Assembly (NCBI RefSeq): GCF_023055435.1
Contig: NW_025963804.1
Location: 62,001-126,000 of the forward strand
Source: Haliotis rufescens
Taxonomy: Eukaryota
DNA length: 64,000 nucleotides
Direction of reading: 5' to 3'
Made by a program: the position numbers and the translations under genes. Of the stretch, positions 1,551 to 23,891 are shown one piece after another; position 1 is the first letter of the stretch, and every line of letters begins with the position of its first letter. A model generated the notes under the pieces. That model worked only from the letters and a program-made list of their open reading frames with translations. It ran no database searches and was not told the origin of the DNA.

Positions 1551-1921
1551 CACATCAGGTAGCGGGTATCCAGTCTATTCAAGTACCTTTCTCCGAGAAA
1601 AGTGAGGCACACGCTACAGATCATTGCACTTATATAGCGATGTTCTGCATGATGTCTACTCGTTCGGATGCTCTGCCATTAATGCCGAGCTCCATGCAGG
1701 GTGGGTGCCATCCTTTAACGTCTTTAAACAAAGAGAAACAAACATTTTGCATAGTAATAGCTGTATTTAATCTGCACAGATGAGTGAGGCATGGGTTTTA
1801 TCCCGGTAGTTCAGCTTGATGATATGTTAGGAATTTCCAGAGATCTGCTTAGTCGCATACACTTTTGATGAGGAGTGTAAATCAACTGTGATCTGAACAT
1901 GAAATGTCACTAGTGTCACAA

Positions 1922-3878: not shown

Positions 3879-4679
3879 ATGTCTGACCGACGCTATGGCT
3901 ACTTCCGCTGTTCTAAGTGTAACGCCCACTGGGAGAGTTCCCATGTTTACTGCCACGGTTTCAAGGTAGGTTGTTGGTGGTTATAGCGTCTCTCTTTCAG
4001 ACCCCTCAATATATATTTACTGATAAAAACATTCACCCAACCCGTCCAGACCCTTCTCAGATCCAGCACCCTATAGATCCCTTTTCAGATATGAAATTCA
4101 GAAATATGGTTCCTTTATAGACTTGTTTTTATTTAACCTCATACAGGACAGGGGCTATTTTTTAATCTAGCGGTTGGAGTTGGTCACTTCTGGGGTAGCC
4201 CAGTACTTAATGCGTCCGGTCGTTCGACTCCCTGCACTGCTCATGGGTTTAAAGTCTGGGTAAATTAATATATCGTTTCAACAAAATCAGTTAATAGTAG
4301 TTGCGATTGTATCTTAGAGATTTATCAAAATGAGATCAATGCCATGTGTTGATATTTCTAAATGATACACGGAATTTCGGATATATGAAAATAACTAAGG
4401 GTGTGTGATAAACTGTTTGTGACAGTGAAGGAAAGTGCATGTGTACATGCAGTATATCTTTATGTGTTATCTCTACAGGCTGTGTACAAACAGGACTGCA
4501 AGTCGTGTAAAATAGGCTGCCTCCCATATCGGGTAGAGAAGATGATCTGTTCCGTGTGCGGTAGTAAAGATTGCACATGCACCAGTGAAGACCGGAAAAA
4601 TAGGAATATTGATCTCAACAAACCTCACAGGTCTGACCTGTGTCACAAGTGCAGGTCTGGGCGACCGTGCAGATACTGA
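3879..4679 (+). CDS. ZAR1-like (3CxxC) zinc-finger domain-only protein, type A copy 1 (95 aa)
   Basis: Exons 3879-3965 and 4479-4679, phase-0 GT-AG. YGYFRC..C...WESSHVYC / YKQDC..C...PYRVE...C..C....C.C..RNID..KPHRSDLC.KC matches the ZAR1 C-terminal domain pattern. Confidence 0.88.
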
Positions 4680-6878
4680 GGTTGCAGCATTGCACTGAAA
4701 GTTGACTGCCTACAGCACCAGACATTAAGGATTGCCTATCTCTCCATAGATAGATGGTAATAATGATGATGATGATGACGAAAATTCTTTGGTAATTGAA
4801 ATGTCTGACAAAACCTAAACACTATCCTCCAGCTTGTGAGTTTTTATGGGTTTCTTTAGATGTTTGTAAGTGCACAGTAAATATAACAATTACCTTTGTC
4901 TAATTTGCTTTTAATCCGTACGACACTTGGTTTTTGTAACGAATTTACCCAATGAAATGATTGAATTATATTATAAAACTGCAGGGCAAACACAAAATGA
5001 TATTTACTTTGGCAGGTTACCAGACAATTGAGCTCTGTTCAACAGATTTATTTTTAAAAGTTGCGTCATTTGTTTGAGAACCGCACCGTGACGTTCATGG
5101 AAGTCGTTTTAGTATGTGTGTATTATTGTAAACAAGAGGCCATATACATCCATACTATTCAAAATCACTCCACTGAAAGACATCAAGGGAAATCCTACTT
5201 CTAGTTTCGTTCTCCATCTGTTAGTCACACATAATCTGTATATGGGTGTAAACAAACTCCATATTTGGCATGTAACAGATCAATATCATTCCTTGAATAC
5301 GACACTCAGACATGGGCAGTTTGCCAGGGTGTCTTGTAAAGGGAGATAACCATGGTTGCTGTTGTTCAGGTGGGCGTAAATGGACCTTAGTTCTAAAAAT
5401 ACCACGTACCTGCATACTGATGTCATATCTATCCATGCAGTTTATATAAATAAAACATTTCATTGCCATGATTGCTCTCTGTGTTACGTTCCTTAAATAT
5501 TGTTTGGGTAACCTAGTGGTTATTACGTTCGCTCGTCACACAAAAGGCAGGATTCTATATTAGTTTCCATATTTTAATAAACTATTTCTCTATATGGAGT
5601 ATCAAACGACCATATTTTTTATTCAGTTGTACATCACCTATATTCGTTATAAACTACATGTGTATCTGGCCAGGTGATGTGAGGCGACCCAAAGTCGTTC
5701 CAGGATTCTCTGATTGTTGGTTTGAATATCAGATTCTTCCTGATTATGATCCATGGTTTGTACCTATTGTATATTGTACATGTTACACATACTGATGGAC
5801 AAAATTAACGGAACACAGCACAATATCGAAGAATATCATTTACTTCTGTTTCCAATTAAAAAGACATGCAACAGTTTGTCACTGAGGGTAATTCAGACAC
5901 TGATGCGTTTAACACATTGCCAAATAGTGTCTCGTCATCGTCAGGCACTCTCCGACTTACAATTGTTCCCCTATATTTGTTCACAGTATATACACACTCC
6001 CATTAGCCTCCGGTTGTCAACTATGTATATGCCTGACTTTTCTAAAGATTGTATAATAATTAAGAACCCAATGGGGATGCGAAGGGGGAGGGGTTAACTA
6101 TGAGACAGAGAACCATAAACGGAGATGTCCAACTATCAATATGACTGTTGCTTGATGAACCATTACGAACCGGTTTATACAGATGCTAACAGTATTGACA
6201 ACTGGTTTCAGTGAACTCGGTTCTATAACTCTTGTAGACCGCGTTATATAAATACATGTTGGATATATTTTGCGAATAAACTTTCATTTGTATTATTGGG
6301 TTAACGTTAATATCTACAATACCGAAACATATCAAGCACTTAAAAGAGTTCATTGTTCTATACAGTTATGGGGAATGAGAACTCCATTGTCGTAACTCTC
6401 AGTTCTATGAAATACATTGTAAGGGACAATCTCGCGATCCTGACTTTTGGAAACACGTTAAATATGTAAAAAATGTGAGGATTCGGCCAAATCTTCTTTC
6501 TCGCACATTTTGTATAATTATATTTAGCGTGTTTCTATAGGTCACGAATGTCCCTTACAGTATTCCATACAAATGCTTTCCGACGCATGTCAGCCGTGAT
6601 ACATAATGTGTTACTTAAACATGAACATAGGTAGGTCAAGGCTGTCTGAATATTTATTCCCAAACTAATAATGGATTTACGCAGTAGCTCATTGTATAAC
6701 CTGACAATCACATTCGTAGAAATGGCTATTCCAGTTTCACTTTTTCGATTTGGTTTGTCTTCAAATGTTGCGTGTACAGTAAATGATGTTCCAGATGTCA
6801 GGTAGCCAGACTCAGTTCCTGTTCTCGCCTCCGTCACCGTCTACTGTTGTCTAGTATTGTCTGGATCTGCTGTCCAAA

Positions 6879-6959
6879 ATGTCTAACCGACGCTATGGAT
6901 ACTTCGAGTGTGATGAATGTGGTTCATCCTGGGAGAGTGCCCATGTCTACTGCGATGGT
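6879..6959 (+). pseudogene. ZAR1-like type B, exon 1 only
   Basis: Matches the 27715 exon, then jumps to sequence equivalent to ~30327; donor and exon 2 deleted. Confidence 0.8.
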
Positions 6960-7305
6960 AGAGCATGGGCTTGTGTTAGTGAGTGAGTGGGTTGATGCCG
7001 CTTTGAACAGCAATTTACTTATACCGCGGCTTGATTTTGGAGAAAAGCTCGTTTGGCGTTAAATACTCTGGTGAAAAAATCACGGATACTAAGGGTCACT
7101 ACCGGCCAGTGTACACAGATGCTCAGTGTTGACGACTAATATCGGCCCTTTCATACTTTGTAGCCCTCCTTATGTAAATACATGTAGGATATGTTTGACA
7201 AATATACCTTCATTTGTAGCGTTACTTATATATCTGATATTTACTTTGTACACAGTGGTTTCTGCTGAGTAATATGATCTCCGTTATCTGTCTTCAAGAT
7301 ACACC

Positions 7306-7609
7306 GGGTGGGGCTGGGGTGGGGATGTGGGGACGAGTGGCCCAGTCGTATAAGACGCCGCGATTCGCTGTGCAGAGTTGCGTCCCTTGGGCACGCCAGA
7401 AACCGATGATTGTGGGTTCGAATCCCGGTTCGCCCCGATTTTGTTTCTAGGTTTGTCAGCACCATACCCGTGCTCGTGGGTTTCACCGAAGTGGTAAACG
7501 TCTGAGACCTTCATCACTCCGGCCTTCTTCCCACATTAAGCTGACACGCCGCGATATAACTGGAATAATGTTAAAAGCGGCGTTAAATCCAACTCACTCA
7601 CTCACTCAC
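7306..7609 (+). mobile_element. tRNA-derived SINE family 2
   Basis: A box TGGCCCAGTCG, B box GGTTCGAATCC, (CACT)n tail, TSD TCAAGATACACC; duplicates near 30673, 39599 and 47608, and an inverse relative at 2380-2632. Confidence 0.8.
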
Positions 7610-8229
7610 TCAAGATACACCATCCCCAGCCCTCTCTGCATGAAGAACAGCACTGAGCCTGTTAATGGAATGTCATTTTGTTACTTGAAGCTCCACAATC
7701 TCTGCTATCCGAGCACATTCTGACCACTGGATGGTTTAGTATAGAGGGAGAAATATCGGGCACGGTTCTGTACAAAGTCATGCCTTCGAATGAGTGAGTG
7801 AGTATGGTTTTACGCCGCTTTTAGTGAGTGAGTGAGTTAAATTTTAACGTTACATCGGCAATATTTAAGCCATAACGTGACGAGACAAAATTTGACATTA
7901 ATGATATATGTTTAAACAATATTAAAATTCTCTCGTCGAAGGAGAGTTCAATAACCAGATTATCACAGATTTACGTAAAACTGTTTTGAGAGCATGTAAA
8001 AATGAATTAGGATTCACCAATACGAGATAAAAAACGGGCTAAAAGATAAAAACGAATCACCACACTAGGGACCATGGGGACTTGTACTTTTGCTACCTGC
8101 ATGGACCCAAGAAGAATTTACATCATACCTTGAGTTGTTGGCGATGATTGACAACATAGACAAACAACAATTAATACAACACATACGTATTCTACGATTT
8201 AAAAAAACATGGCAGAAATAAATATACTT

Positions 8230-9597
8230 TATTAATCAGCATCAGCCATTGTGTTACCAACGATTCCAACATGGCTGGGTTACCAACAAAAACGATGTTG
8301 TATTGGCTCGTAGAAAGAACATTTAATAATTCAATAATTACAAGTGGATGTGTTTAATTGCCTGAAGACAAGAAAGAGAATTTGAAAATATGATAAATTG
8401 CTTATATTTAGATTGTTTACTAAAGAACTCTAGCGCTGTTAATATTGCTTTTGATTCGGCCGTAAAATGGAACAGTTATCCGGAAGTCTGGAGATGTAGT
8501 CCTGGATTCAATGATGGTGGCGCTGGCAACTGTGTCACCGTCCTTGGATCCATCTGTAAATATAGATGTGAAAGTATCACATTTGTTTCTTAATTGATTA
8601 TACTCTTGTTGATAAATACGTTGATGTGTATCCATGGTGGAGAAGACAAAATCTGGGTTGTGGCTATATTTTCAAGTGTTATTTTAGCAGCAGAAATATG
8701 ATGCTTTATTCTTATACCAAGGAGCTGAGTAAGAGATGATTTTGTATTATAGAGATCGTTACAGAGAGGATTAAACACAATCGAAAGCTGGATTGGAGTC
8801 ATTAGTGTAATGTAAAGACAATTTAATTCGACGTTGCTTTAGTGACGGTTCATCAGCCTTGGGCATTTGATTTCTGTTCAACTTTTTTCTTTCTGTTTTT
8901 GTTAATTTTCGGTGATGCGAGGTCAGAGGTGATGCTTCTGAATGATTCTCAGAAATAGTCGGTCGAAGGACAGACGAAGTTTGGACAGCTTGATCAGATC
9001 TGACCCTTGTCAAATCAGTCTGACACCGGACAGATGAAGTTTGAACAGGACGGATGAGTGCAACAGAGTAATTCATAACTGAAGGAGTTGTGGCTTGACA
9101 AGTTGTTTAGCATCTGCAAATAAAATGTTTCTTTCCGCACTTTATTTTCATAAATTTGGTTTCGGTTTGCCAAGTAGGGCAGGATTTAGAAGATGCCATG
9201 TGTTAGCCATCACAGTTGGAACATTTGAGGTCTTCATGACAATCCATGCCCTCACGGTTGGCATCACAACGCTGACAAACCACGGGGCGAGTACAGGTTT
9301 TTTAACCATGTCCATACTGTTGGCGTCTATAGCACCGGAGTGGATTGGGGACATACACATCCACCCCGATGTTAACATAACCATGTTTAGTTGATTGTGG
9401 AACTGAAGCACGGGCAAAAGTGAATAGATAAGTTTTGTTAGAACAATGTTTGATTTTTCATCTTTGCGAGTAAAACGTTTGATGTTTACTTATTAAACAA
9501 CTTGATTCTTAAGGTCAGATACAATTTCCTCTTCTGAACATATCCGCCAAGGAACGAGTCCAGTCACTAACAATGCCACGAGAAGAGTGTGTTCTGT
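8230..9597 (-). mobile_element. Internally deleted I-clade (RNase H-containing) LINE remnant
   Basis: ORF1-like YVPNPLRCY..QQYGH; RNase H IFTDGSK and W.PSHVGIVGN..AD; many stops. Confidence 0.8.
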
Positions 9598-9874
9598 GGC
9601 CCAATCTATCGATCTTGTAGAGTGTTTGAATGATTATTGATTGTGATTGTAACAAATAGGGCTTGACTGACACCTCGGCCTGTAATCAGCTATTGTAGGG
9701 AATCAATGATAGGCTTACAGATCAGTCGTCTCACGTCCATGAGAGGGAGATTGAAGCGGACAGAGGGTGGATCACCCTGATTTTGACCCAGTATTGATAC
9801 AGGTCCGGTGGATCAACAGTATGGTAATATATTGGTGAGGCCGGGTTGATGAATGATTATGTGACCCAGTATTA

Positions 9875-10137
9875 GTTTGTTTATTTGTTTAACGCTGCAC
9901 TCAGCAATATTCCAGCTATATGACGGCGGTCTGTAAATAATCGAGTCTGGACCAGACAATCCAGTGATTGACACCATAAGCATCGATCCACGCAATTGGG
10001 ATACGATGACATGCATCAACCATGTCAGCGAGCCTGACCACCCGATCCCGTTAGTTGCCTCTTAAGACAAGCATAGTCGCCTTTTACAGCAAGCATGGAT
10101 TGCTGAAGATCTATTCTGCCCCGGATCTTCACGGGTC
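9875..10137 (-). mobile_element. SINE-like family 3 with (AAAC)n tail
   Basis: Dispersed copies at ~3232, 23478, 42167, 43770, 55880 and 56160. Confidence 0.75.
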
Positions 10138-10304
10138 GACTCAGTACTAAAAAAGATCGGTTAGATCACTTCGTATGAACTTAAACATATTTCACTAACA
10201 TTAACATTGGGCAAAAGTCGCCAACTTACAATGCCCTTTCCATGAACATTTATACAGTGTATGCATAACTGTACAAATGTCACCCAGTATGTGACTCAGT
10301 ATTG

Positions 10305-10462
10305 TTTGGTCCGGTATTGATAAAAGACGAGTTGATCATCCCTAATGTGACCCGGCATTGATAAAATTCGGGTGGATCATCCTTAATGTGACCCGGTGTT
10401 GATAAAAGTAGGGTGGATCATCCTGTATTGGCCCGATGTTGATATAAGTCGGGTGGGTCATC
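10305..10462. repeat. ~41-42-bp minisatellite that received the Maverick insertion
   Basis: Units like GTGACCCGG..TTGATAAAAGTCGGGTGGATCATCC; uninterrupted copy at ~42610-42790. Confidence 0.75.
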
Positions 10463-10972
10463 AGTAGTAACCTGCATCGGTAGTGGACCACCAGGATTTC
10501 TGGGACCGCTCAGATTTCTGGGACCAAGATGGCGGCACATCCGTTTCCGGTCACGTGACCTGCGCAGTGCATGATGGGTACCTGCGCGCGCATGCAAGAT
10601 GGCGTCGCATCCGTTTCCGGTGGCGCGCGCATGCAAGATGGCGTCGCATCCGTGTCCGGTGGCGTACGCATGGAAAGAGGGCGTCGCTTCCGTTTCCGGG
10701 GAGGAGGAGGAGGGATAGGGGGAAAACCCGGAGAAGCGCCCGTACGAGGGGAACAAGATCGACAGGGTTGTTGTTCTTGTGTTGTTCTAAAAATAGAAAT
10801 AGACGTGGGGTGGTGGTGGGGGTGGTGAAGGGAGGGAGGGAGGGAGGGAGGGAGGGAGGGGAGAAGGGGTGGGTTCACGGTGTCGTGTAGGGTGGGGGGG
10901 TGGGAGGGTCGTCAAAGCAAAGGAGGAAAAGCTGTCTTTCGGGAGAGATGGGTGGCCCTGAAAAGGGCCGTT
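10463..10972 (+). repeat. Left terminal inverted repeat of the Maverick
   Basis: Reverse complement of 21987-22497 apart from a few differences, mostly in the G-rich tract. Confidence 0.95.
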
Positions 10973-10974
10973 TT
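10934..10974 (-). terminator. Histone-type 3' end signal (stem-loop 10954-10969 plus HDE-like)
   Basis: Minus strand reads AAAAC GGCCCTTTTCAGGGCC ACCCA TCTCTCCCG AAAGAC. Confidence 0.85.
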
Positions 10975-10979
10975 GATGT

Positions 10980-11336
10980 TTACATGGTTGTGCATCCCAT
11001 GGTACAAAGGCACGGGTGGACTTTCATCTGTCTCCTCACAGGACACCTACTGGTGTGTGTTAACCGCCTCACGTAGGTGTCCTTGAGGATGGTCTTACAG
11101 TACACACATTCGAAAGTCCCATCCCGTACCCTTGTACCAAGGGCATAGACGGGCAGGCCCCCTTGACATCGGCCACATTGCCACGCTGGAGACCATGGGG
11201 GTAGTGGGGCTGGTGGTGATGTTTCTTTCCACCCAGGCAAAGGTTGTGCCACTGTGGTGATCTCTAAATCCCAGTTTTCTTTCAGGGGGTAGTTGTTGCC
11301 GGTGTTGTTGTTGTTGTTGTTGCTGCTACTCATCAT
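10980..11336 (-). CDS. Small zinc-ribbon protein (CxxC...CxxC), Maverick accessory gene
   Basis: 118-aa ORF with WQCGRC and FECVYC; TATA/Inr cassette directly upstream and histone-type stem-loop 10 nt after the stop. Confidence 0.65.
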   Translation of the reverse strand: MMSSSNNNNNNTGNNYPLKENWDLEITTVAQPLPGWKETSPPAPLPPWSPAWQCGRCQGGLPVYALGTRVRDGTFECVYCKTILKDTYVRRLTHTSRCPVRRQMKVHPCLCTMGCTTM

Positions 11337-11364
11337 GATGCTTTCTTTTCAATCAATTTTTACA

Positions 11365-11660
11365 AGTGACACTGACCCACTCGAATCCACGCTTGTTTTA
11401 TAGGAGAGACACTGACACCCTGCCTCCCGGTTGGTTCGCCAGGCCGCAGCTCCGATTGGCTCGTTCCGGGGCCCGGCCCGCACCTCGGTTTTCCAAAACG
11501 GACCGACCCCTGTGTTTCTTTTCCATAGGAAATGGATTTTACCATGGGAGAGAAAGCACAACCCCGGTTCGACCAATCAGAGCCCCGCCTGGTCCGAGCG
11601 CCGCTTCTGATTGGTCGACCACCCAGGCTTCGGATTGGTCCGATTTCGATCCGTTTTTTT
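11365..11660 (-). promoter_or_regulatory. Repeated CCAAT/TATA/Inr promoter cassette, copy 1
   Basis: Several CCAATC boxes; TATAAAA (11402-11396) 29 nt before the A of TCAGT (11373); points at the zinc-ribbon ORF. Confidence 0.8.
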
Positions 11661-12314
11661 TTCTTCTTTGGTAGCCTTGGTATTTTTTGAGGTAGACGGT
11701 CGTCTGAATGGTAAAGGAAGGTGGACCTTCATAGGTAGACATGAACGTGGGAATGCCTACGCGATGTACGTGGTGACACCCCCATGCCAATCGGAATGTC
11801 ATGTGTGCGTGTGTGTGTGTGTATGTCTTCAAACAGACGTTGACGTTGATGCATAGAATAACGTGTGGTCAGTCAAAACGTGGTGTCCTGTGTGTGTGTA
11901 TCGAGTCGTGTCGTAGTGAGATGAATAGAGAAAGATCGATACACCTACGTGACGTTTGCACACGTCATGGACTTCGTGTCGCGATGTGAACGTCATGGTT
12001 GTACTTTGTGTGTTGTCATGCAAACGTCGTACCCTGTGCGTGTTTTCAAATTATTATTATTATTATTTAAGGATACCGAGGTGTTGACACTCGTGTAGGT
12101 CGACAGGCGTACTGTGACGCGTGTGTTCATGCACACGTGATGTTTGACGTGGTGTACTACGTGTCTCTATGGATCTATGGATCTAACTCTATTTATATTT
12201 ATTTATATCTATGTATTGTATTTTTAGACGTGTGCCTCCAAGAGGTCTAGGGGGAGGATGTGGGTTCTTTGTTTTGGAGGGGCAGAGGGTTTAGCAAAGC
12301 AAAGGAAGAAAGTT

Positions 12315-12355
12315 GTCTTTTGGGTGAGATGGGTGGCCCTGAAAAGGGCCGTTTT
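12315..12355 (-). terminator. Histone-type 3' end signal (stem-loop 12335-12350 plus HDE-like)
   Basis: Minus strand reads AAAAC GGCCCTTTTCAGGGCC ACCCA TCTCACCCA AAAGAC, ~125 nt after the BIR gene stop. Confidence 0.85.
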
Positions 12356-12475
12356 GGGGGAAGAAAAACTTTTCTGCTGCTGTCCACTTGGGGTTCCAAC
12401 CAAGAAAAGAAAAACATTTGAACGGGAACTTGAACGGGAACTTGAACGGGAACGCAGGACACGGGAAACGTCCTC

Positions 12476-12940
12476 CTAGGCAGCCGGCCGTGCTACGTCA
12501 TTCGTGTACCTCTGTTTCTCTTCGCAGAGATAGTGCAGTTGTAGCTTCTTCTGGTGTTTCACCAGCCCGGTTAGCTTGAGGTAATCGCAGTCTGGGGACC
12601 ACTTGTGATGTGCCGCCCAAGGATCGTCGTGGGGTGCCCATTGTCTCAGCCGCACCCCACATTGGAAACAGCACACCCCATCGGCACCCTGAGTGTAGAC
12701 AAAGCCCGCATGGGCCATCTCTTCAGCAGTCTGATACATTTGCGTGGGCCACGTCTCAAACGAAGCGAGCCTTCTTTCAAAGCGTAGATAATAGTGCGAT
12801 GGTGTTTGACTGAGCAGTGACACCGCCTCCTCGGCATGACTCTTACTCCAGCATTCACGAGGTTCTGCACTATCCATCACCGCATCTTCGCCACGTGTCG
12901 TCGTCGTCGTCGTCGTACCACTCTTCTTTGTTTCAGCCAT
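12476..12940 (-). CDS. Single-BIR inhibitor-of-apoptosis (IAP)-like protein
   Basis: RLASFETWP...MAHAGFVY...VCCFQCG..L.QW..HDDPWAAHHKWSPDC is a canonical BIR fold with Cx2Cx16Hx6C; no RING. Confidence 0.92.
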   Translation of the reverse strand: MAETKKSGTTTTTTTRGEDAVMDSAEPRECWSKSHAEEAVSLLSQTPSHYYLRFERRLASFETWPTQMYQTAEEMAHAGFVYTQGADGVCCFQCGVRLRQWAPHDDPWAAHHKWSPDCDYLKLTGLVKHQKKLQLHYLCEEKQRYTNDVARPAA

Positions 12941-12960
12941 TCTAGATGATTTTATGTAAC

Positions 12961-13255
12961 ATACACTGACCCACTCGAATCCACGCTTGTTTTATAGGGG
13001 AAGAACCGGATCGAAACTCACTGCTTCCTGGTTGGTCCAAAACGCAGCGCACCGATTGGTTCGTTCCGGGGCCTGGTCCGCACCTCGGTTTTCTAAAACG
13101 ACCCGACCCTTGTGTTTCTTTTCCATAGGAAATGGATTTTACCATGGGAGAGAAAGCACAACTCGGTTCGGGTGCTGTCTTCTGATTGGTCGTTGCTGTC
13201 TTCTGATTGGTCGGCCATCCAGGCTTCGGATTGGTCCGATTTCGATCCTGTTTTG
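12961..13255 (-). promoter_or_regulatory. Promoter cassette, copy 2 (between the divergent BIR gene and polB)
   Basis: Same core; TATAAAA (12996-12990) 29 nt before the A of TCAGT (12967). Confidence 0.8.
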
Positions 13256-13329
13256 GGGAAGGGTTGTCCATCCCTCAGACGTTCAGCACCTCTTAGAGTA
13301 CAGACGTTCATCAGATACACATCGCTATA

Positions 13330-16300
13330 ATGACGAGCAACCAAAGTACGCCCTATCGTTTGGAGAGGAAAGATATCACCCGCTCCAGACGGTTAAGAAC
13401 TGCTAATCATACCTATCGTTTGACTTTCAACCCAGACTACTTGGACACCGTACCACCGGAACGCGTCCCCATGGAACTGCCAGCTTTATTTGACAGGGTG
13501 ATCGATGACTTTTATGAACAGATATCAGGTCAGAAGGGAGATCGTATTGGTCTAGGTATCGATCATCCCGCTTTGAACACACCCATACGGATACCCTTTC
13601 GACGTTTTGAAGATCTCCATGGGCTAACTATTTTGCAAGCCGTGGAAAAAGTCCAACAGTCCAACAAAGACCTGAACATCGATGCCACCATGGATGTGAC
13701 CTTAGTACACGTCGCAGATCCCAACAGGGTAGGATCGGGCAGTGGTGCTCCCCGGCTGAAAAACGTGATTGGACTCGAAGCTTTTTTAACACGCAAAAAG
13801 TGCATCGTACGGATCAAGAACGAAGATCAATCCTGTTTGGCACGGGCCCTGGTGGTGGCACAGCATTATGCCCACAAGCCTCACCCTCTGACCCCAGCAT
13901 GGACCGCCCAGCGAAAGAGACTGACGAGAACGGATCGCGTCGACGTTCAAGGCATACGGGCACGGGCCTTGTTTCGAAGCCTTGGCCTGCCCGAAGGACC
14001 CTGTCGGGGTCTGGACGACCTCGCACGCGTGGGACGAACCTTGACCCGTCTGCATTATCAACTGAAAGTCTACAGTCAAGAGGTGGGTCAGAGACTGTTG
14101 TACAAGTGTGATGAGACTCCACCCCACGCCACCGTGCTGCATCTATACCATCATGATCAGCACTACGATGTCATCACTTCCATGCCCGCTTTTTATGGCT
14201 CTAACCATTACTGCGAATGCTGTGACAAACGTTACGACCATCCCGAAAACCATCCCTGCACCAAGGAATACCGCTGTTACCGCTGCTTCTACTCTAGTTA
14301 TTGTGGACCCCAGGAAGAGCACGGGATCCCTTGCTTGACATGTCAAGGTTGGTTCCCCAATCCAACGTGTTACACCCGACATCTCCAGTCACCGTCAGAG
14401 GGAAAACCCAGCGCCTGTCAATCGATTCACAGGTGCCCGAACTGTTTTCAGTTGGTCCGCGTCTTGGAGACCCCCATGGCTCACCACGCGTGCTTCGATG
14501 AAGAACATCCCTGCTTGGTGTGCCGAGAACCCATGACCCCAGATCATCGCTGTTACATGACGCCTCTCGGTGAAGAAAACGAGGAGGAGGAGGGGGAGGA
14601 AGCGGAGAAGGAGGAGGAGGGTGAAGAGGAACAACATCCCCTACGAGACCATGTTCAATACGCCTTCTACGATTTTGAATGCATGCAAGACACGGGGGAA
14701 CACATTCCAAATTTGTGCGTGGTGCAACTAGGATGTGGACGATGCATCAGTGAAGTGAGCAAGAACTTGTGCGAACACTGTCCATGGAGAGAAGAAGGGT
14801 ATGGTCCCAGCCTTGAGATCGTGTTTCGAGGCCCCACCACGCGACATGATGTGTGTGTTTGGTTGACCACGTTGTCTGAAATACCCAAGAAGAAGCCCCA
14901 CCCAGAGGAAGAGGAGGACAGCACACGCAAGGGGACGACAGCTCACCTGGGGAAAAAAAGAAAACGGGATGACACCCCCTCAAGAAAGCACGCTTCCAAA
15001 TGACAGGCATCACCCCAGCAGGAGGGGGAGGAGTTGGGGGAAGAGGGGAAGGAGATGGAAGAGGGGGAAGAGGGGGAAGAGGCCATGGAAGTGGAGAAAA
15101 CAAAGAAGCCAAAGAACAAGAACACCTCCTGTCATACAGTCCCGAAGGAGGATCGCATTTATGTGATGGCCCATAATGCACGATCCTATGATTTACACTT
15201 AGTCCTGAAGGGTCTGTCCCCCCTCCTGGTGACACTCCCCACCAAGATTCGGCATGGCCAACAAATTTTGCAAATGACCCTGGGACGGTTATGTTTCGAA
15301 GACAGCTTAAATTTCATCCCTTACCCCCTGAAAGCCTTTCCCAAGAGCTTTGGGCTGAAAGAAATGAAGAAAGGGTACTTTCCACACTTTTTCAATACGA
15401 GAGTCAACCAGACCTACAGAGGTCCCTATCCACCAGCCGTCACGTACGATCCCGATGGCATGTCTCCCGCGGAACGCACAGCCTTCCTCCAGTGGCATAC
15501 CCAAAAAGTGCAAGAAGGAGCCTTGTTCGACTTACAAGGAGAACTTTTAACCTACTGCCAAAGCGATGTGGACATTTTGAGACGGGGATGCGCCGACTTC
15601 CGACAGAACGCCATCCACTCGGTGGGCATGGATCCCTTTGTGGAAGTGATGACAGCTGCAGCGTTCACCATCAAATCCTTCCGAAAACACGACCTGAAAC
15701 CCAATACCATCGCCATTCTCCCACCTCAAGGCTACCAACCCAAGAGAAACAATTCCCAGGCCTGTATGCACTGGCTCCACTATCTGATGGAAACGGACCC
15801 CCATCTGCACCTCCAGCACGCCAGGAATGGCGGTGAAAAAGAGTTCACGTGTGGAGGGGGTCAACATCGGTACACCGTGGATGGCTACGATCCAGCGACA
15901 GGCACCGTCTACGAATTCCTGGGCTGTTTCTGGCATGGGTGCCAGGCCTGTCACAAGACCCGACGTGGAGAACCGCATCCCGTCCTGGGCTCGTCGTTGG
16001 GAGCCCGTTACACCGACACCCACTACCGCTTGAGTCTCTTGAGTCAACACCCTGAGGTGAAACGGATCGTCACCCTGTGGGAGCACGAGTTTACGAAAAT
16101 GCAACGGGAGGACTCCGCACTGCGTGCTTTCTTGCAGGGACCCCCCTGTATCCACGTCCCCGGGCTGCTCAACCCTCGCGATGCCTTCTATGGAGGATGC
16201 ACCAATGCGACGCGATTATGCTACGAAGCCCAAGAAGGTGAAACCATCAAGTACATCGATATTTGTTCCCTTTATCCCTACATTTGTAAGACCGGAGTGT

Positions 16301-17580
16301 TTCCCACGGGACACCCGACCCTTCTCCATCAACCCCCTGTGGACACGTTGTTTGAACTGAAAGGCCTGATCCAATGCCGTGTCTTACCCCCGAAACGACT
16401 TTACCATCCGCTACTGCCTTACAGATCGGGTGGCAAACTGCTCTGTCCTTTGTGCCGCACGTGTGCCGATACCCGGTCAGACTCCCCCTGCGAGCACACG
16501 GACGAAGAGAGGTCATGGGTGGGGACGTAGGCCACCGTAGAACTCCAGGAAGCCGTGAAGAAGTATGACTACCGGGTGCTTCAGATCTACGACGTTTGGC
16601 ATTTTGACACCTTTGCACAGCATGACCCCGACACCCAGCAAGTGGGACTCTTTGACACTTACATCGATCGACATTTCAAGGAGAAGCTCGAAGCCAGCGG
16701 ATACCCCGAAGGATGTACGGATCACGACGCGTACATCCAGGAGATCTACGACAAAGAAGGCATTGGGTTGGACAAGGACCGCATCGAAAAAAATCCAGGA
16801 CGTCGCACGATTGCCAAGATGCAACTGAATTCGCTCTGGGGCAAGTTTGGGCAACGGGTAGACTACAGTCAGAACGTGTATATGAACGATCCTGTACAGT
16901 ACTTTGCCTTGTGGAGGGATGAACGCAATACCATCGAGGATGTGGTCGTTGTCAACGAACACATGGTGGAAGTGACCTATACCCAGCAGAAAGAATTCCA
17001 AACCCCTCATTCTCATTTCAACGTCGCCATCGCTGCTTGGGTCACTGCCCAAGCACGTCTCAAGCTGTACGAGACCCTTGCCCTGGTGGACCGCAGGGTG
17101 TTGTACTTTGACACGGACAGTGTCATTTACATTCATCGACCCCACGACGCGAATCCAGAGCTGGGTCATTCGTTGGGTGAGTTTACGGATGAACTGGACG
17201 GAAACACCATCGAGACGTTTGTGTCGGGAGGCCCCAAAAACTATGGCTACGAGTTAATGAACCCCAGACCCGATGGAACGCGCACGACCTGCAAAGTGCG
17301 AGGGTTCACTTTGAATTACCGAAACCAACGCCATCTCAACTTTGACACCATGAAAGGACTGATACTGGGACAACGGCCTGGGAAAGAGGAGGAGAAAATC
17401 AGTTTGGATTACCCTCATCAGATCATTCGAAAAGGCCCTCGGCACGAAAACGCACTCGTGACCCGACCCACCCGAAAAGACTATCGTACCGTGTACGACA
17501 AGCGACGTCTCGTCTACGACGACATCACAGGGCTACCTGTAGACACGCTCCCCTTTGGGTACAGAGACGACTTTCACTAA
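13330..17580 (+). pseudogene. polB: Protein-primed family B DNA polymerase (Maverick pPolB) with two in-frame nonsense codons
   Basis: ORFs 13330-15003, 15034-16530 and 16555-17580 are all in one frame, separated by TGA (15001) and TAG (16528). Motifs: OTU-like (IKNEDQSCLARA...HYDVI), Cys-rich region, ExoI YDFE, ExoII HNARSYD, ExoIII YCQSDV, VSR-like insert (VDGYD..VYEFLGCFWHGC), PolA DICSLYP, PolB KMQLNSLWGKFGQ, PolC YFDTDS, GPKNY, KVRGF. Confidence 0.95.
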
Positions 17581-17629
17581 AATTTTTCATGACAGCGGAT
17601 CGAAACTGAATCGACATGGACCCCTACAG

Positions 17630-17890
17630 AAAAAAACGGATCGAAATCGGACCAATCCGAAGCCTGGATGATCGACCAATCAGAGGCCGCGCTCGGGCCA
17701 GGGTGGCCTCTGATTGGTCGAACCGAGGTTGTGCTTTCTCTCTCACGCTACAAGCCTAACCCTATGGAAAAGAAACACAAGGGTCAGTCCAGTTTGGAAA
17801 ACCAAGGTGAAAGTCAGGCCCCGGAACGGGCCAATCAGAAAGCAGGACCTCCGTGGCTTTTAATACGACCGACGCTCTCCGGTCATCACT
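17630..17890 (+). promoter_or_regulatory. Promoter cassette, copy 3 (diverged)
   Basis: GGATCGAAATCGGACCAATCCGAAGCC...CCTATGGAAAAGAAACACA; TATA degenerate; upstream of the 18083 gene. Confidence 0.7.
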
Positions 17891-18082
17891 TTTCACTGAA
17901 CGGACCAAGCAACAACATCGTCCCCTCTGATTGATGTTCCTCACGTTGTGTTGGTTGTTGGCGTTTTATCTGGAAGAAACGCGTGTTTGGAGAGAGTACC
18001 ATCAAGTGTTGACGTACCTCCGTGAAGACTTGGAAAGAAACAACAACAACAACAACAACGAACAGAACATCCGGACAACATC

Positions 18083-19310
18083 ATGTCGAACAACATGTCG
18101 AAACGGTTGAATGACAAGACACGAAGCGACATGAGTGGCCAAGGAAGCAGTGGAGATGGGAACGGTAACATGACTGCTGAACTGTGGGGTGAAGTGTACG
18201 ACTTGCTGTGTTTAAAGATGAAGACCGACGACGCGTACGCCAAGTTACGTGCGAAGGGCGACAACCTGATGTGCGACCAGATACGTTCAAAGATGAGGAA
18301 GCTGACTGAACCCGAGAAAGGCACATCCAAGAAGACGATCAAGAAGATCCAGAAGAAAAAGACACGCAAACCCACAGCCGTGGTGACCCCCACAGCAACG
18401 GCAACACCCCCCACCCCACCCCCACCCCCACAGCGCCAGTCCCCACCACCACCACCACCACCACCACCACAGCAGCCACAGCAACCACGACTGTGGCGAC
18501 AACAGACATCGACACGAGGGGGACATCCTTTTTGAAACCTGCCACACCTGCAACGCCTGCAAAAAGACGATCACGGAAGAAATTATCTCTGAAGATCTCT
18601 CCTCAAGAACAACTGTAAGTACCCTGCTCTTCTTTGTCTCAGTCATTCTTGATGTGATTCATATGCATGACCTATGCCTATCCTAAATGGACTCTGTCCT
18701 TATGATTGACAGGACCCCTGATGTCAGTTCAGCCCAGTCCGTGCTAGAACAGTGGTGGGAATAAACCCCTCGGGAGCCCACCTATTCACCGAATGCCCCT
18801 GTGACGATGGCGACGGGTGACCTCGATGATCATGAAGCGCTCAAGATGGCCACTCTCCCTTCCATGGATCTGGACACGCTTCCCCTGCTCGAGGCTTCTT
18901 GGTCACCAGCATCCCCGGAAGAGGTTCATGTCTACTCCTCAGGTACGCCCATGGTTTGCGACGATGATGATGATGACAACGTTGACCTGGATCCTTATGG
19001 AGAAGCTCAACTCACTCCCCTACAACGCGAATGTCGTGTTTGCCGACACAACAACATGTTAAGATACATCAGTTGCAACAGCGGGCAAGTGATGTGTCAT
19101 GCCTGTGAGCTGGAGCTCATAGACTGTACTTGTAGTATGTTGACCTATGACAGCATAGTGACACATGATGACATGCCTATCGCATCTGAGGATCACATCT
19201 TATGGTGATCCTCCTCTTCACTCGAAGAACTTTGTCAACACGCCAGCTGCAACCGTGATCAAGTGATGTGTCATGTCTGTTTCAGGGAGGCCATAGACTG
19301 TACGTGTTGA
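18083..19310 (+). pseudogene. Decayed spliced Maverick gene: basic/low-complexity N-terminus, acidic tract, duplicated Cys module
   Basis: Candidate GT-AG intron 18615-18712 joins a KRRSRKK frame to the 18801 frame. This needs one frameshift in the C/CCA tract (~18410-18470). In-frame stops at TAA 18762 and TGA 19206; the SCNxxQVMCHxC..xIDCTC module occurs twice; AATAAA at 19701. Confidence 0.5.
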
Positions 19311-19628
19311 ACGGTTGGGCCTCTCACAGGTTTGAGGGAGGACCACCTCTTAGGGACTTGAAGATGGAAGAGCTTGAAGATGGAAGAGGAAAACGTTGTC
19401 GCGTTATTGTTGTTGTTGTTGTTGTTGTTGTTGTAGGGACATGCAAAGCACTCCCTCCTCCATTGACTTTTCGTATTTCCATTGTATCGGGTTGTGATTG
19501 GTTTTTTCATGATTAAACAGTGATTGATTGAACTGACTCTTTGTGTCTTGATTGATCTCAACTCCAAAAGAGTGCCGAACCGAGGGTAGAGGTTGAGTTG
19601 AGATGTCGTTGACGTCGTCTGTCTGTCC

Positions 19629-19666
<38 letters not shown>

Positions 19667-19890
19667 GCCTCTGTCATGTCAGTGCACACCAAAGTGAAGA
19701 AATAAAATTAAAAATAGATAAAAGAGAAAGGCCATGCTTGAAAGATCAGCTGCCTGGTGTCAGTCATTCCAGGACGCATCGATCCCCCCTACACCCCTCC
19801 CCGTGTGCCATGTCATGTCATGTCATGGATCATGTCATGGATCATGCCGTGTGTCCGTCAACCCAAACACAGGATGACGTCACGTGATGA

Positions 19891-20128
19891 GGTGTAGGAG
19901 ATGGAGAGTTTCATAAAAGCTAAAGTCATGACCTTCCGTTGAAGGGTGTAGGGTGGAGAGTTTCATAAAAGCTAAAGTCATGACCTTCCGTTGAAGGGTG
20001 TAGGGTGGAGAGTTTCATAAAAGCTAAAGTCATGACCTTCCGTTGAAGGGTGTAGGGTGGAGAGTTTCATAAAAGCTAAAGTCATGACCTTCCGTTGAAG
20101 GGTGTAGGGTGGAGAGTTTCATAAAAGC
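19891..20128 (+). repeat. 52-bp tandem repeat (~4.5 units) upstream of the second BIR gene
   Basis: CATAAAAG recurs at 19912, 19964, 20016, 20068 and 20120. Confidence 0.95.
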
Positions 20129-20170
20129 AGGCGAACCCTCAGACCTTCTTTCAGTGAAGTCACCGTCATC

Positions 20171-20695
20171 ATGGAGCAAAGACGTTCTATGAATGCCATG
20201 TCATCCTCCCGAGATGTCGTCACCGATTCCGAGTGGGTGTCTGAAAAGGCGAGAGAACAAGAAGCGAGAAAACGTTCACTCTTGATGGACGACACACTCT
20301 TGATTGACGACAGGTGTCGACACGGTGACGTTCTGGAGAGACCTTTTCCTTCCTTGTGTCAACCTTCTCATCCCCACTATGATTCATTTCAAGAACGTCT
20401 GAGGTCTTTTAAAACGTGGCCTCAACAGATGACCAAGACCCCTTATGACATGGCCATGGCTGGCTATTTCTATCCAGGACGAGGGGACTGTGTGACCTGT
20501 TATTGCTGCGGTGTGGCACTCCGCCAATGGGAAGCCACAGACCAACCCTGGAAAGAACATCTGAAGCATGCCAAAGTCCCCTGCGAATACTTGTGTGTGT
20601 TTTGTCCTGATGGAGAAGTGAACGAAAAATACAGACGTTTGGTGTCCCAAGAAGCACGGAAACGAAGAGTCGAGTGTCTTGTTCACCCCAAGTGA
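20171..20695 (+). CDS. Second single-BIR IAP-like protein
   Basis: ERLRSFKTWP...MAMAGYFY...VTCYCCG..L.QWEATDQPWKEHLKHAKVPC; no RING; ATTAAA at 20838. Confidence 0.92.
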   Translation: MEQRRSMNAMSSSRDVVTDSEWVSEKAREQEARKRSLLMDDTLLIDDRCRHGDVLERPFPSLCQPSHPHYDSFQERLRSFKTWPQQMTKTPYDMAMAGYFYPGRGDCVTCYCCGVALRQWEATDQPWKEHLKHAKVPCEYLCVFCPDGEVNEKYRRLVSQEARKRRVECLVHPK

Positions 20696-20929
20696 CAACG
20701 TTTCTTTTTTTTTTTCAAAGTGGTCAGACGTTCCTACCCTCGCGGTCACCCCTCCCTCGTGTTCACAAAAATCACAGGGATGTCCCCCCTCATCCTGTGA
20801 CTTTTGTTTTGTGGTGTTGGTTCATGTGATCAGGGGGATTAAATTTTTTGTTAAAAACTCATAGTCGTGTTATGTTGTCTGTAGGATGAAGAAAAAACAA
20901 AACAGGATCGAAATGCACATCCCGATAAA

Positions 20930-21195
20930 AAACCGGATCGAAATCGGACCAATCCGAAGCCTGGGTGGTCGACCAATCAGAAGCGGCGCTCGGACCAGGC
21001 GGGGCTCTGATTGGCCGAACCGGGGTTGTGCTTTCTCTCCCATGGTAAAATCCATTTCCTATGGAAAAGAAACACAGGGGTCGGTCCGTTTTGGAAAACC
21101 GAGGTGCAGGCCAGGCCCCGGAACGAACCAATCGGGGGCGCTGCCTGGGGAACCAATCAGGAAGCAGGGTGTCAGTGTCTCTCCTATAAAAACAA
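20930..21195 (+). promoter_or_regulatory. Promoter cassette, copy 4
   Basis: Near-identical inverse of copy 1, ending CCTATAAAA ~45 nt before the CCHC ATG. Confidence 0.8.
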
Positions 21196-21230
21196 AACAA
21201 GAGCGAAGCCACTCACACACACTGCATTCT

Positions 21231-21869
21231 ATGAAACCCATCATGTCAGCTCGATACAGTTGTAGGATGTGCCAGACCGACAGTCACAGTTACCTGTACT
21301 GCCCTGAAGTGACATGTACCGAGTGCCACACTCAAGGTCACCGTCACTATGTCTGTCCGAAGCTGAACAGTCAAGAGAAGCAGGAGAAGCAGGAGAAGCA
21401 GTACCAGGGCCCCTGTTACAACTGTGAAGCCCTGGGTCATTTCGCTGCAGATTGCCCAGAACCCCGTCGAAAGAAGACTCCCCATCGCCTGGACCGCTGT
21501 TACAACTGTGGAGCCCTGGGTCATTTCGCTGCAGATTGCCCAGAACCCAGTCGAAAGAAAACGTTAGCAACACCGTCCACGTCGACACCCGTGGCATCCG
21601 TGGCAACCGTGACCCCCGTGGCCCCCGTGACACCCGTGACACCCGTGGCACAAGTGCTTCATCTCATCGAAGACATGCATTCCGATGTCCTCGACCTAAA
21701 AGAATGTCTCACACAACTCCGGGTAGGCATCACACCTCGTCTAGAGAAAAGAAAACGGAACAGGTCCCCCTCACGAAAACACGTTTCAAAGCGCCGACGA
21801 CACCTTCCGTCCGAGGATGAGATGGAAGTAGAGGATGGAGAAGTGAGATCCTCTGAACAAAGTGACTAA
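21231..21869 (+). CDS. 4x CCHC zinc-knuckle protein with NLS and C-terminal EDGEV motif
   Basis: Four Cx2Cx4Hx4C knuckles, KRKRNRSPSRKHVSKRRR, then EMEVEDGEVRSS. Start placed at the first ATG after the TATA (~21185), not at the track start 20886. Confidence 0.85.
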   Translation: MKPIMSARYSCRMCQTDSHSYLYCPEVTCTECHTQGHRHYVCPKLNSQEKQEKQEKQYQGPCYNCEALGHFAADCPEPRRKKTPHRLDRCYNCGALGHFAADCPEPSRKKTLATPSTSTPVASVATVTPVAPVTPVTPVAQVLHLIEDMHSDVLDLKECLTQLRVGITPRLEKRKRNRSPSRKHVSKRRRHLPSEDEMEVEDGEVRSSEQSD

Positions 21870-21947
21870 CGCATGGGTCATGCTGCCCCACTGTTTTTAC
21901 CCGTTTCCCATCGTTTGCAGTTTTTCCAGTGTTCCAGTGTTCCTGCC

Positions 21948-21978
<31 letters not shown>

Positions 21979-21984
21979 TGTTTT

Positions 21985-22025
21985 CCAACGGCCCTTTTCA
22001 GGGCCACCCATCTCTCCCGAAAGAC
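21985..22025 (+). terminator. Histone-type 3' end signal (stem-loop 21990-22005 plus HDE-like)
   Basis: CCAAC GGCCCTTTTCAGGGCC ACCCA TCTCTCCCG AAAGAC, ~120 nt after the CCHC gene stop. Confidence 0.85.
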
Positions 22026-22497
22026 AGCTTTTCCTCCTTTGCTTTGACGACCCTCCCACCCCCCACCCCCCACCACACCGTGAACCCACCCCTTCTCCCC
22101 TCTCCCTCCCTCCCTCCCTCCCTCCCTCCCTTCACCACCCCCACCACCACCCCACGTCTATTTCTATTTTTAGAACAACACAAGAACAACAACCCTGTCG
22201 ATCTTGTTCCCCTCGTACGGGCGCTTCTCCGGGTTTTCCCCCTATCCCTCCTCCTCCTCCCCGGAAACGGAAGCGACGCCCTCTTTCCATGCGTACGCCA
22301 CCGGACACGGATGCGACGCCATCTTGCACGCGCGCGCCACCGGAAACGGATGCGACGCCATCTTGCATGCGCGCGCAGGTACCCATCATGCACTGCGCAG
22401 GTCACGTGACCGGAAACGGATGTGCCGCCATCTTGGTCCCAGAAATCTGAGCGGTCCCAGAAATCCTGGTGGTCCACTACCGATGCAGGTTACTACT
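21987..22497 (-). repeat. Right terminal inverted repeat of the Maverick
   Basis: Reverse complement of 10463-10972. Confidence 0.95.
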
Positions 22498-23891
22498 GTC
22501 ATCCTTTATTTGACTCATTGTTGATAAATGTTAGCAAAGGATTACACAAACAGAATACACCAAACATGCTTTATATTCATTCATTCAAGTGTACATGCAT
22601 ATTTACAGGTCAACAGATAAACCAGTTTCACACCGGTGACCATCAGCTGACTGTCTTGTCACCTTTCACAATTAAACTGTAATGACCGCCCTGGCTCCGC
22701 TCGTCCATCTCACATCGCTAATGTGGTTCCCTCGAGTGTCGTATCTACACAAAGACATGGAGACTTCCTTTAAGTTCCCAGTGAATAGTCGCGCGTGTGA
22801 TATACAGCGCCACACCAGCTAGGGAGGGTTATATCTCTTCCCTGGTCACCTAGCACCCCCGGGACACGGTTCGCGGCGCCTCAGACGACTGGGCCACCCG
22901 TGCCCCCTGTCACAGATGACCAACTGTTGACATCGGTATATGTTATCGCGCATCCACATACCACGTAAGCAGAGTGTCAGGTGTTATTCTATCCCGGTGT
23001 CTGACGTATGCCAACTGTCTGTCTTGATGTTGTGCAACAAAACACCCGTCTCTTATAGCCATGCCCTGTACTGTTGTATATGACTCTGCTGAAATTCGAG
23101 AAGAATGTCTCGTGATAAGGTGGGCGTGGTAACTCGTTTTTCTACGTTTACCAGTCACATAATCTGATTTCGTCATTGCCAAGATAAGCTGTATGTGTTA
23201 CATAATATATGGTGTAGTCTTCCCATTTAAAACATACTGTTTGCTGCATTTCTTAATGACGTCATAATCCCATCGCTGTTTTCTGAAAAATGTAAACAGG
23301 CATATAAATTTATTCTATATTTATTAGGGATTAATAGGTGTCTCAATGATTCAGAGTTGCGTCCCTTAGGCATGAGAGGCAACGATGATCGTGGGTTTAT
23401 CACAGCCAAATCCGTGCTCCGTGGTAAAAATCTTGACCAGTATTATTTCAGTATTTCACTACATGAAGCCTTTTCGTTTTGTTTGTTTGTTTGTTGTTTA
23501 ACGCCCCACTCGGCAATATTCCAGCTATATGACGGCGGTCTGTAAATAATCGAGTCTGGACGTGACAATCCAGTGATCGATTTCATGAGCATCTTTCCAC
23601 GCAATTGGGATGCGATGACATACATCAACCAAGTCAGTGAGCCTGACCACCCGATCACGTTAGTCGTCTCATGATATATGTATACTGTAATGTATACAGT
23701 TCAAAGTCTACAGTCTACTGTATACAGTTAAACATCTCACTCCCCCATTTATGTATCATATAAACTAATAAGAAATGTAAATGTTTTCCGAGAAACTGTC
23801 ACATACACGTATATATTACTGTGAGGAGCCAACAACGTGTCAGCTCTTTTCTACATATCCGCCATCGTGCTGCTGTTGTCTGCTGTCCATG

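Follow-up and report, generated by a model that had tools for sequence, protein, structure and literature searches.

In animals, mRNAs that end in a stem-loop and carry no poly(A) tail are regarded, to our knowledge, as peculiar to the replication-dependent histones. Here we describe a Maverick/Polinton derivative in a 64,000-nucleotide (nt) stretch of DNA from the abalone Haliotis rufescens (assembly GCF_023055435.1, contig NW_025963804.1, positions 62,001 to 126,000, forward strand; the whole stretch is called the window below, and coordinates follow its own numbering), in which a CCAAT-rich cassette occurs four times, each time just upstream of an open reading frame (ORF), and three of these ORFs are followed by a histone-type stem-loop. 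The four-copy repeat is real, and on balance we read it as a promoter of histone type that, together with a histone 3′ signal, serves the non-histone cargo of a Maverick family.

Excerpts from the histone literature give the signals for cleavage by SLBP and the U7 small nuclear ribonucleoprotein (snRNP) as a hairpin plus a purine-rich downstream element (PMC6314538, PMC5011920) and describe the stem-loop mechanism as histone-specific (PMC6314538); the available part of a further paper treats the stem-loop as the histone target of SLBP (10.64898/2026.08.17.745202). As portrayed in such excerpts, replication-dependent histone genes resemble the abalone units in their uninterrupted ORF, short leader, TATA box, CCAAT boxes, hairpin with purine-rich element and lack of a poly(A) hexamer (PMC6314538, PMC5011920), and the likeness extends to a promoter 8-mer within one mismatch and, at the second cassette copy, to the layout of a divergent gene pair. 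Unlike histone genes, the ORFs of the element encode BIR and zinc-knuckle proteins and a protein without an assigned family, lie inside a mobile element rather than a histone cluster, have stop-to-hairpin distances of 10, 120 and 125 nt, and share one promoter design among several genes.

Maverick/Polinton hallmarks, in the excerpted text of one paper, are terminal inverted repeats (TIRs) of 100-1500 bp, a target site duplication (TSD) of 5-8 bp and a protein-primed polB (10.1101/2023.08.22.554363; part of PMC6431247 was a further source for classifying the element). The abalone element shares long TIRs, a 6-bp TSD and a protein-primed polB with these adintovirus-like elements; adintoviruses also have IAP-like accessory genes (PMC8502044), and Mavericks, according to part of another source, have variable cargo near their termini (10.1101/2022.07.12.499685). 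Unlike complete Mavericks, it is 12 kb long, has no integrase, ATPase, protease or capsid ORF, and has a broken polB. Nematode Maverick cargo is described as intron-containing host genes, whereas the abalone cargo has a repeated promoter on one side and a histone 3′ signal on the other. Human LTR12 (HERV1), also a mobile element, likewise combines several NF-Y sites with a sequence complementary to U7 snRNA; in the portion of the account that is available, U7 represses transcription there via motifs like the histone downstream element (HDE), and no stem-loop/HDE processing unit is described (PMC11417402), whereas in the abalone element the stop codon is followed by a hairpin and a downstream element in the register for processing.

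In open-licence PMC and bioRxiv, we found no paper that brings together “Polinton” and “histone stem-loop” and, among titles and the first lines of abstracts, nothing that reports a histone 3′ signal on a gene of a mobile element or virus. The main texts of the Maverick papers PMC8502044, 10.1101/2022.07.12.499685 and 10.1101/2023.08.22.554363 do not mention “promoter”, nor does the main text of the cargo paper (10.1101/2022.07.12.499685) mention “histone”. We could not find the known parts described in this combination, which does not establish its absence from print.

A four-copy cassette and three histone-type 3′ signals

Where do the cassettes lie, and what follows them? The copies, the ORFs of the three stem-loop units and their 3′ signals are as follows.

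10929..10974, minus strand: unit 1 Histone3 stem-loop with AAAGA element; Rfam 35.3 bits (gathering score 34), 10 nt past the stop codon
10980..11336, minus strand: ORF A, 118 aa, Cys/His-rich, no family; coding status uncertain
11369..11663, minus strand: cassette copy 1 (c1), with a distal GGATCGAA motif, four CCAAT boxes, the 19-nt core, TATAAAA at 11402 and TCAGT at 11375
12310..12355, minus strand: unit 2 Histone3 stem-loop with AAAGA element; Rfam 36.8 bits, 125 nt past the stop codon
12476..12940, minus strand: BIR1, a single-BIR, IAP-like protein of 154 aa; Pfam BIR, E 7e-23, with IAP structures in the PDB
12963..13254, minus strand: cassette copy 2 (c2), with four CCAAT boxes, TATAAAA at 12996 and TCAGT at 12969; candidate bidirectional promoter of BIR1 and polB
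13015 (minus strand) and 13241 (plus strand), inside c2: two outward-facing TTCGATCC motifs
17630..17839, plus strand: cassette copy 3 (c3), with four CCAAT boxes, no proximal box and no canonical TATA; an extra GGATCGAAA at 17597
20924..21191, plus strand: cassette copy 4 (c4), with five CCAAT boxes and TATAAAA at 21185; an extra GGATCGAAA at 20905
21231..21869, plus strand: zinc-knuckle (CCHC) ORF, 212 aa; Pfam zf-CCHC, E 1e-13
21985..22030, plus strand: unit 4 Histone3 stem-loop with AAAGA element; Rfam 36.1 bits, 120 nt past the stop codon, at the inner end of the right TIR

The original prediction had placed four copies at these sites and on these strands; blastn recovers all four, with the homology of c3 ending near 17839 and not at 17890. 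The cassette is about 270-290 bp long, and the copies are diverged, with 75.6-94.8% identity over 205-297 nt (c1-c4, 94.8% over 268 nt; c1-c3, 85.7% over 210; c2-c4, 83.7% over 239; c1-c2, 80.8% over 297; c2-c3, 75.6% over 205; E values across pairs 1e-31 to 1e-118). Differences of 5-24%, with indels, rule out an assembly artefact. Restriction to the Maverick, which the original prediction requires, holds within the 64-kb window: the other 52 kb contain no copy, even at E = 10 and word size 7. Every copy stands directly 5′ of a different ORF and in its orientation, as expected, and c2 in addition lies divergently before polB, its far edge about 75 nt from the polB ATG.

The internal features of the cassette are equally as foreseen, with multiple CCAAT boxes and a conserved core. 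The 19-nt core is exact in all four copies, and CCAAT occurs 17 times in 1,140 bp of cassette, vs. 11 times in the element's remaining 10,899 bp and 103 times in 51,966 bp of flank. Thirteen of the 16 window matches to RRCCAATSR fall inside cassettes (binomial 1e-20, a value inflated because the copies are not independent), and one c2 box derives from a 21-nt tandem duplication. All three TATAAAA occurrences in the element belong to c1, c2 and c4, where they precede the ATG by 66, 56 and 46 nt, respectively; c3 has TTAATA only. The spacing of 29 nt that had been predicted for two copies is seen in c1 and c2, between the first T of the TATA box and the A of TCAGT. Judged by its sequence, the cassette is very probably a promoter. 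Its central two CCAAT boxes form an inverted repeat (17672-17721 in c3, 11569-11618 in c1) that is nearly perfect in c3 (−41 kcal/mol as RNA, z −6.5; c1, z −4.7); in c2 this palindrome is lost, and the 21-nt tandem duplication stands in its place. A role as coding exon or upstream ORF was rejected: open frames score negative on codons, and the translation has 0 matches among 1.84 billion representatives.

Rfam Histone3 exceeds its gathering score at three sites in the whole 64 kb, each 3′ of the ORF behind a TATA-bearing copy. The 6-bp stem is the minimum-free-energy structure, and hairpin, ACCCA and, 9 nt past ACCCA, AAAGA keep the same register in all three units. The layout in each is CCAAT boxes, TATA, short leader (TATA 46-66 nt 5′ of the ATG), uninterrupted ORF, hairpin, ACCCA and AAAGA. 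There is no A[AT]TAAA in the three units, and the hexamer is present in the gene behind c3 and in a second BIR gene, BIR2. Donor-like pentamers do occur in the stem-loop units, so their transcripts could still be spliced. Across six genes, stem-loop and TATA cassette split 3/0/0/3 (one-sided P = 0.05), a statistically weak result because the units share ancestry. The prediction that the TATA-bearing copies drive exactly the three stem-loop genes is correct as to position; that they drive them is what the arrangement suggests.

The terminator recurs in a relative of the zinc-knuckle gene. That ORF has five relatives, all from Haliotis, at 54-92% identity. The last 15 residues of one of them, P0124 (H. 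rufescens, 66%), equal an off-frame translation of window positions 21976-22020, and it is the sole protein among P0001-P0125 with an 8-residue match to the translated cassette or hairpin. Its gene model thus reads through the same hairpin, which makes the terminator a family trait and not a quirk of one copy. Histone-type 3′ processing of the cargo RNAs is probable, and S-phase timing of their expression has about an even chance of being right.

Histone likeness and competing explanations

How closely do these units resemble animal histone genes? A hairpin-pattern scan of GTDB contigs, which contain 0 matches to the cassette core, returned seven loci (L001-L007), evidently mis-binned animal DNA. 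Histone genes are present on four of the seven: L002 (H2A, H2B, H3), L003 (H4), L004 (H2A/H2B) and L006, a chimeric contig that terminates in the 3′ part of H2A. Across these loci the H2A, H2B and H4 genes carry the same 16-nt hairpin as the window and H3 is one base off, an identity partly guaranteed because the hairpin was the query. The distance from the ACCCA-type pentamer to AAAGA is 9 nt in the window, and in most fetched loci it is 10-11 nt.

A de novo comparison of the four promoters of L002 and L003 (H2A, H2B, H3 and H4) yields a single 8-mer common to all, GGATTGAA. When the window is scored with a matrix built solely from these four sites, the edge of c1 comes first, c3 second, c4 fifth and c2 21st, and none of the 174 other 350-bp bins reaches the top score. 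TTC[AG]ATCC occurs seven times in the element, always in or beside a cassette, and once elsewhere in the window. A GATCC-type motif precedes the TATA box of sea-urchin histone genes, a point that a literature search did not confirm. In the H3 and H4 promoters the 8-mer lies at the far end, before the CCAAT boxes, an arrangement found in all cassettes; a distance of 24 nt separates the first two boxes of the cassette and likewise those of the H3 promoter. The H2A/H2B promoter has the 8-mer facing outward, 18 nt before TATA and 87 nt before the ATG; c2 has one such motif 19 nt before its TATA box and the other 89 nt before the polB ATG. This H2A/H2B-like spacing of outward motifs is the best argument for a bidirectional c2.

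The original prediction had likened the cassette to both histone and cell-cycle NF-Y promoters. The histone likeness is supported by the identity of the hairpin and by the match of the cassette edges to the 8-mer; the G2/M comparison is not supported. G2/M NF-Y/CHR promoters have CCAAT boxes about 32 nt apart, in both orientations, with a CHR/E2F site. The cassette shares with them several CCAAT boxes in both orientations but differs in its TATA box and irregular spacings (24/37/118/25 nt), and a search for CHR, E2F and DRE motifs gave no match.

A number of observations weigh against pairing a histone-type promoter with a histone 3′ signal here. The promoter comparison uses histone genes of another invertebrate, not abalone, and the 8-mer was first spotted by eye with both sequences visible, before the de novo test. 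Fifteen of the 174 other bins reach the matrix score of c2, and the L004 H2A/H2B spacer lacks the 8-mer. Alignment of cassettes to histone promoters is weak, with five to six of 200 shuffles as good for H3 against c1 and c3 and nothing above shuffles for whole-promoter alignment to H2A/H2B or H4; local alignments to histone and non-histone upstream regions taken together stay mostly at the level of shuffles. In the reverse k-mer test, 2 of 55 cassette 8-mers occur in all four promoters, one of them of low complexity; 36 of 500 shuffles reach that count, and none is shared at k = 9 or 10. Between the far edge of c2 and the polB ATG there is no TATA box. Motif columns are no more conserved than the rest of the cassette (34/53 vs. 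121/207, P = 0.28), so this column comparison detects no excess conservation that would mark selection on the motifs. ORF A has no match in Pfam, NCBIfam or PHROG and no homologue. Finally, the stop-to-hairpin distances of units 1, 2 and 4 (10, 125 and 120 nt) compare with about 27-33 nt in the fetched histone genes. For their rapid decay when S phase ends, histone mRNAs depend on a short stop-to-hairpin distance; the cargo RNAs could therefore be processed like histone mRNAs while not decaying like them.

Several of these points would suit an ordinary strong CCAAT/TATA promoter, duplicated in the element alongside a hairpin that was captured once and is only a terminator or stabiliser, or defunct, with no link to S phase. 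CCAAT and TATA boxes are generic, and over the whole promoter the cassette has weak similarity to its histone counterparts; two of the 3′ untranslated regions are 120-125 nt long, and two of the hairpins belong to the TIR and are copied along with it. We nevertheless consider this explanation unlikely, although it is the best of the alternatives: a matrix derived from histone genes alone puts the cassette edges on top, the c2 spacings are H2A/H2B-like, and hairpin, pentamer and AAAGA stay in register in all three units, with the hairpin kept in a divergent relative.

It is improbable that the units are a neutral relic, a captured histone-gene fragment or repeat multiplied by recombination in a decaying element to which it is of no use. 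The broken polB, the missing core viral genes, the motifs without excess conservation and the lack of homologues for ORF A are what one would expect of such a relic. Yet all four copies lie at the 5′ end of an ORF on its sense strand, TATA-to-ATG spacing is retained despite differing leaders, the zinc-knuckle ORF is still open in relatives down to 54-66% identity, and no histone coding remnant is seen among the ORFs of the element (Pfam).

More improbable again is a repeat that serves mainly in replication, packaging or enhancement, its position before ORFs being secondary. Baculovirus homologous regions would be the analogue, and the internal palindrome, together with c1 and c4 as a second, inner inverted repeat near the termini, agrees with it; the strict sense orientation, the TATA box and initiator-like site at the gene-proximal end, and the loss of the palindrome in c2 do not. 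The least probable candidate, a host miniature inverted-repeat transposable element (MITE) or other short mobile element inserted four times, has in its favour the strongly folding internal CCAAT/ATTGG palindrome (z −6.5 in c3, −4.7 in c1) and the inverted 9-mer near both ends of c2, and is opposed by 0 copies in 52 kb of repeat-rich flank, by edges without a shared terminal inverted repeat or target duplication, and by the unlikelihood of four insertions within one 12-kb element, each 5′ of an ORF.

How did the units arise? The copies are mosaic: c1 equals c4 at 60 of 60 and 39 of 40 columns of the body and at only 14 of 36 past the TATA box, where c1 equals c2 at 34 of 36. Two of the three terminators are the inner ends of the TIRs, into which both terminal genes run outward, and the hairpin block of unit 2 is, over 63 nt, 92% identical to the TIR inner end. 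Junctions differ from unit to unit. As the cassette edges, too, share neither an inverted repeat nor a target duplication, nothing points to a MITE or to a site-specific swapping system. The pattern fits a history in which promoter and terminator were duplicated within the element and inverted copies then underwent recombination or conversion. The “plug-in” units of the original prediction therefore do not describe a precise exchange mechanism, given the differing junctions, the TIR-derived terminators and the mosaic copies; the term fits as a description of the outcome. The co-regulation of the units that it had also proposed is conjectural.

Under the favoured reading of a histone-type promoter with a histone 3′ signal, a Haliotis Maverick lineage would have acquired or mimicked a host RNA polymerase II promoter of the replication-dependent-histone type along with the 3′ signal. 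NF-Y and a histone-promoter factor would start transcription, and SLBP and the U7 snRNP would cleave the RNA right after the hairpin, yielding non-polyadenylated mRNAs for the IAP, the zinc-knuckle protein and ORF A whose levels would peak in S phase, at a time when such a self-replicating DNA element would need replication resources and protection from apoptosis. Copy c2 is probably bidirectional and, in the manner of an H2A-H2B spacer, would serve BIR1 on one side and polB on the other. The units would have come from duplication inside the element and later recombination or gene conversion, with no dedicated swapping system, and c3 would have lost its TATA box and now serve a gene with ordinary poly(A) signals.

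The element and its other contents

The element spans 10463-22497 (12,035 bp) and has a higher GC content than its flanks. Its other features are listed here.

10457..10462, no strand: left TSD, 6 bp; the hexamer is repeated at 22498-22503, and an empty site lies elsewhere in the window
10463..10972, plus strand: left TIR, in which the motifs AAGATGGCG and CCGGAAAC occur three times each; the unit 1 stem-loop terminator is formed by its inner end
13330..17580, plus strand: polB, protein-primed; Pfam DNA_pol_B_2 (PF03175), one frame with two internal stops
17934..19310, plus strand: gene behind c3, in pieces 17934-18110, 18083-18535 and 18807-19208 plus a partial repeat, in three different frames
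19891..20128, plus strand: tandem repeat of 4.5 x 52 bp, upstream of BIR2
20171..20695, plus strand: BIR2, 174 aa, with no cassette and no stem-loop; ATTAAA at 20838
21987..22497, minus strand: right TIR, a 98.6% match to the left TIR

The TIRs are 510 bp long, start with AGTAGT and are 98.6% identical over 512 nt (blastn). Their outer parts (10463-10710, 22260-22497) contain 39-bp repeats with AAGATGGCG and CCGGAAAC, which we take to be YY1- and ETS-like, and also GTCACGTGAC and GCGCATGC motifs. The empty target site, with a single hexamer copy, lies at 42706-42819; both 60-nt flanks match it at 100%, and their overlap is the 6 bp. The insertion point is a 41-bp tandem array inside one flank repeat block. 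The flanks (1-10400 and 22500-54000) consist of large near-identical repeated blocks spaced about 8-23 kb apart, and tRNA-derived repeats, probably the heads of short interspersed elements, lie at 29093-29164, 34322-34393 and 52465-52523.

TIR length, TSD and polB agree with Maverick membership; the integrase, ATPase, protease and capsid genes and the 13-25 kb size do not, there being no ORF and no room for these genes among all inspected stop-free stretches of at least 120 aa. With the core genes absent and a length of 12,035 bp, the element is classed from its sequence as a non-autonomous, decaying Maverick/Polinton derivative rather than a complete member. The polB frame is interrupted by stops at 15001 and 16528. 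Of 1,299 matches to its middle piece, the best three, at 94-95%, come from gene models of Haliotis cracherodii; next are proteins of other Haliotis and of bivalves, with at most 57%. The H. cracherodii models, P0001-P0003, each omit parts of the C-terminal half, which suggests that these three close copies are broken too. As this genomic copy is non-autonomous and decaying, the design described above characterizes the family, not necessarily expression here today.

Among the remaining genes, BIR2 is 49% identical to BIR1 over 77 aa. The 52-bp repeat upstream of it, each unit of which holds CATAAAAG and TGACCT, aligns with the cassette no better than shuffles do and is unrelated to it; it is a second candidate promoter or enhancer. 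ORF A has a weak zf-BED lead (score 0.87) and a codon score tied with another frame. In the zinc-knuckle ORF, an LxCxE-like string (21294) that overlaps a zinc-ligand cysteine is probably incidental. The gene behind c3 has a donor-like GT[AG]AG at 18615, AATAAA at 18760 and 19701 and no stem-loop; it encodes an acidic stretch and paired CXXC, contains a partial internal duplication (19070-19133/19244-19307) and found no convincing family or homologue in profile and homology searches. We rejected it as an adintovirus “Oncoid”, a class defined by LXCXE next to paired CXXC (PMC8502044), since paired CXXC is present but LxCx[ED] is absent from its frames. The roughly 600 bp between c1 and the unit 2 terminator (11700-12290) hold no convincing ORF, are rich in ACGT/CACGTG and end AT-rich.

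Candidate stem-loop genes beyond the histones

Do other non-histone genes carry such a 3′ signal? At three of the seven fetched loci, the ORF that precedes the hairpin is not a histone gene (coordinates on their own contigs).

L001, 132-860, minus strand: 220-aa MADF ORF
L005, 90-451, minus strand: 99-aa ORF, no family
L007, 141-788, minus strand: 195-aa RING ORF

In each, the ORF is uninterrupted, a TATA-like box precedes its ATG by about 45-50 nt, and a Histone3 match of 41-43 bits with downstream element lies about 20-25 nt past the stop codon. The L007 contig is gene-dense, apparently intronless and virus-like, with a kinase, a membrane protein and a 580-aa ORF. The histone 8-mer is absent upstream of all three ORFs, even with one mismatch allowed, and tblastx finds no similarity between these loci and the element; without a shared 8-mer or protein similarity, they would be independent cases. 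They are leads only, being short mis-binned contigs, animal-like but entered as bacterial metagenome-assembled genomes, that could be chimeric like L006. By eye, a direct repeat of about 35 nt flanks the promoter-ORF-hairpin unit of L005 (about 1010 and 65, minus strand), and the sequence past its hairpin resembles that past H3 in L002, which gives the impression of a foreign ORF in surroundings like those of a histone cluster.

Given these three loci, the non-histone stem-loop strategy may be widespread. We tentatively propose, at somewhat less than even confidence, that DNA viruses and virus-like elements of invertebrates have found their way into the histone pathway more than once, expressing IAP, zinc-knuckle, RING and MADF proteins from SLBP/U7-processed, non-polyadenylated S-phase mRNAs, with the Maverick contributing a reusable promoter-cargo-hairpin unit, a terminator built from its TIR and an H2A/H2B-like bidirectional copy that drives polB. 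Natural non-histone genes with the full histone signal would be an exception to the histone-only rule. If true, this would show how a self-replicating DNA element without its own transcription machinery times its genes to host S phase. The cargo transcripts would then be invisible in poly(A)-selected RNA sequencing, which may be one reason why Mavericks often look silent.

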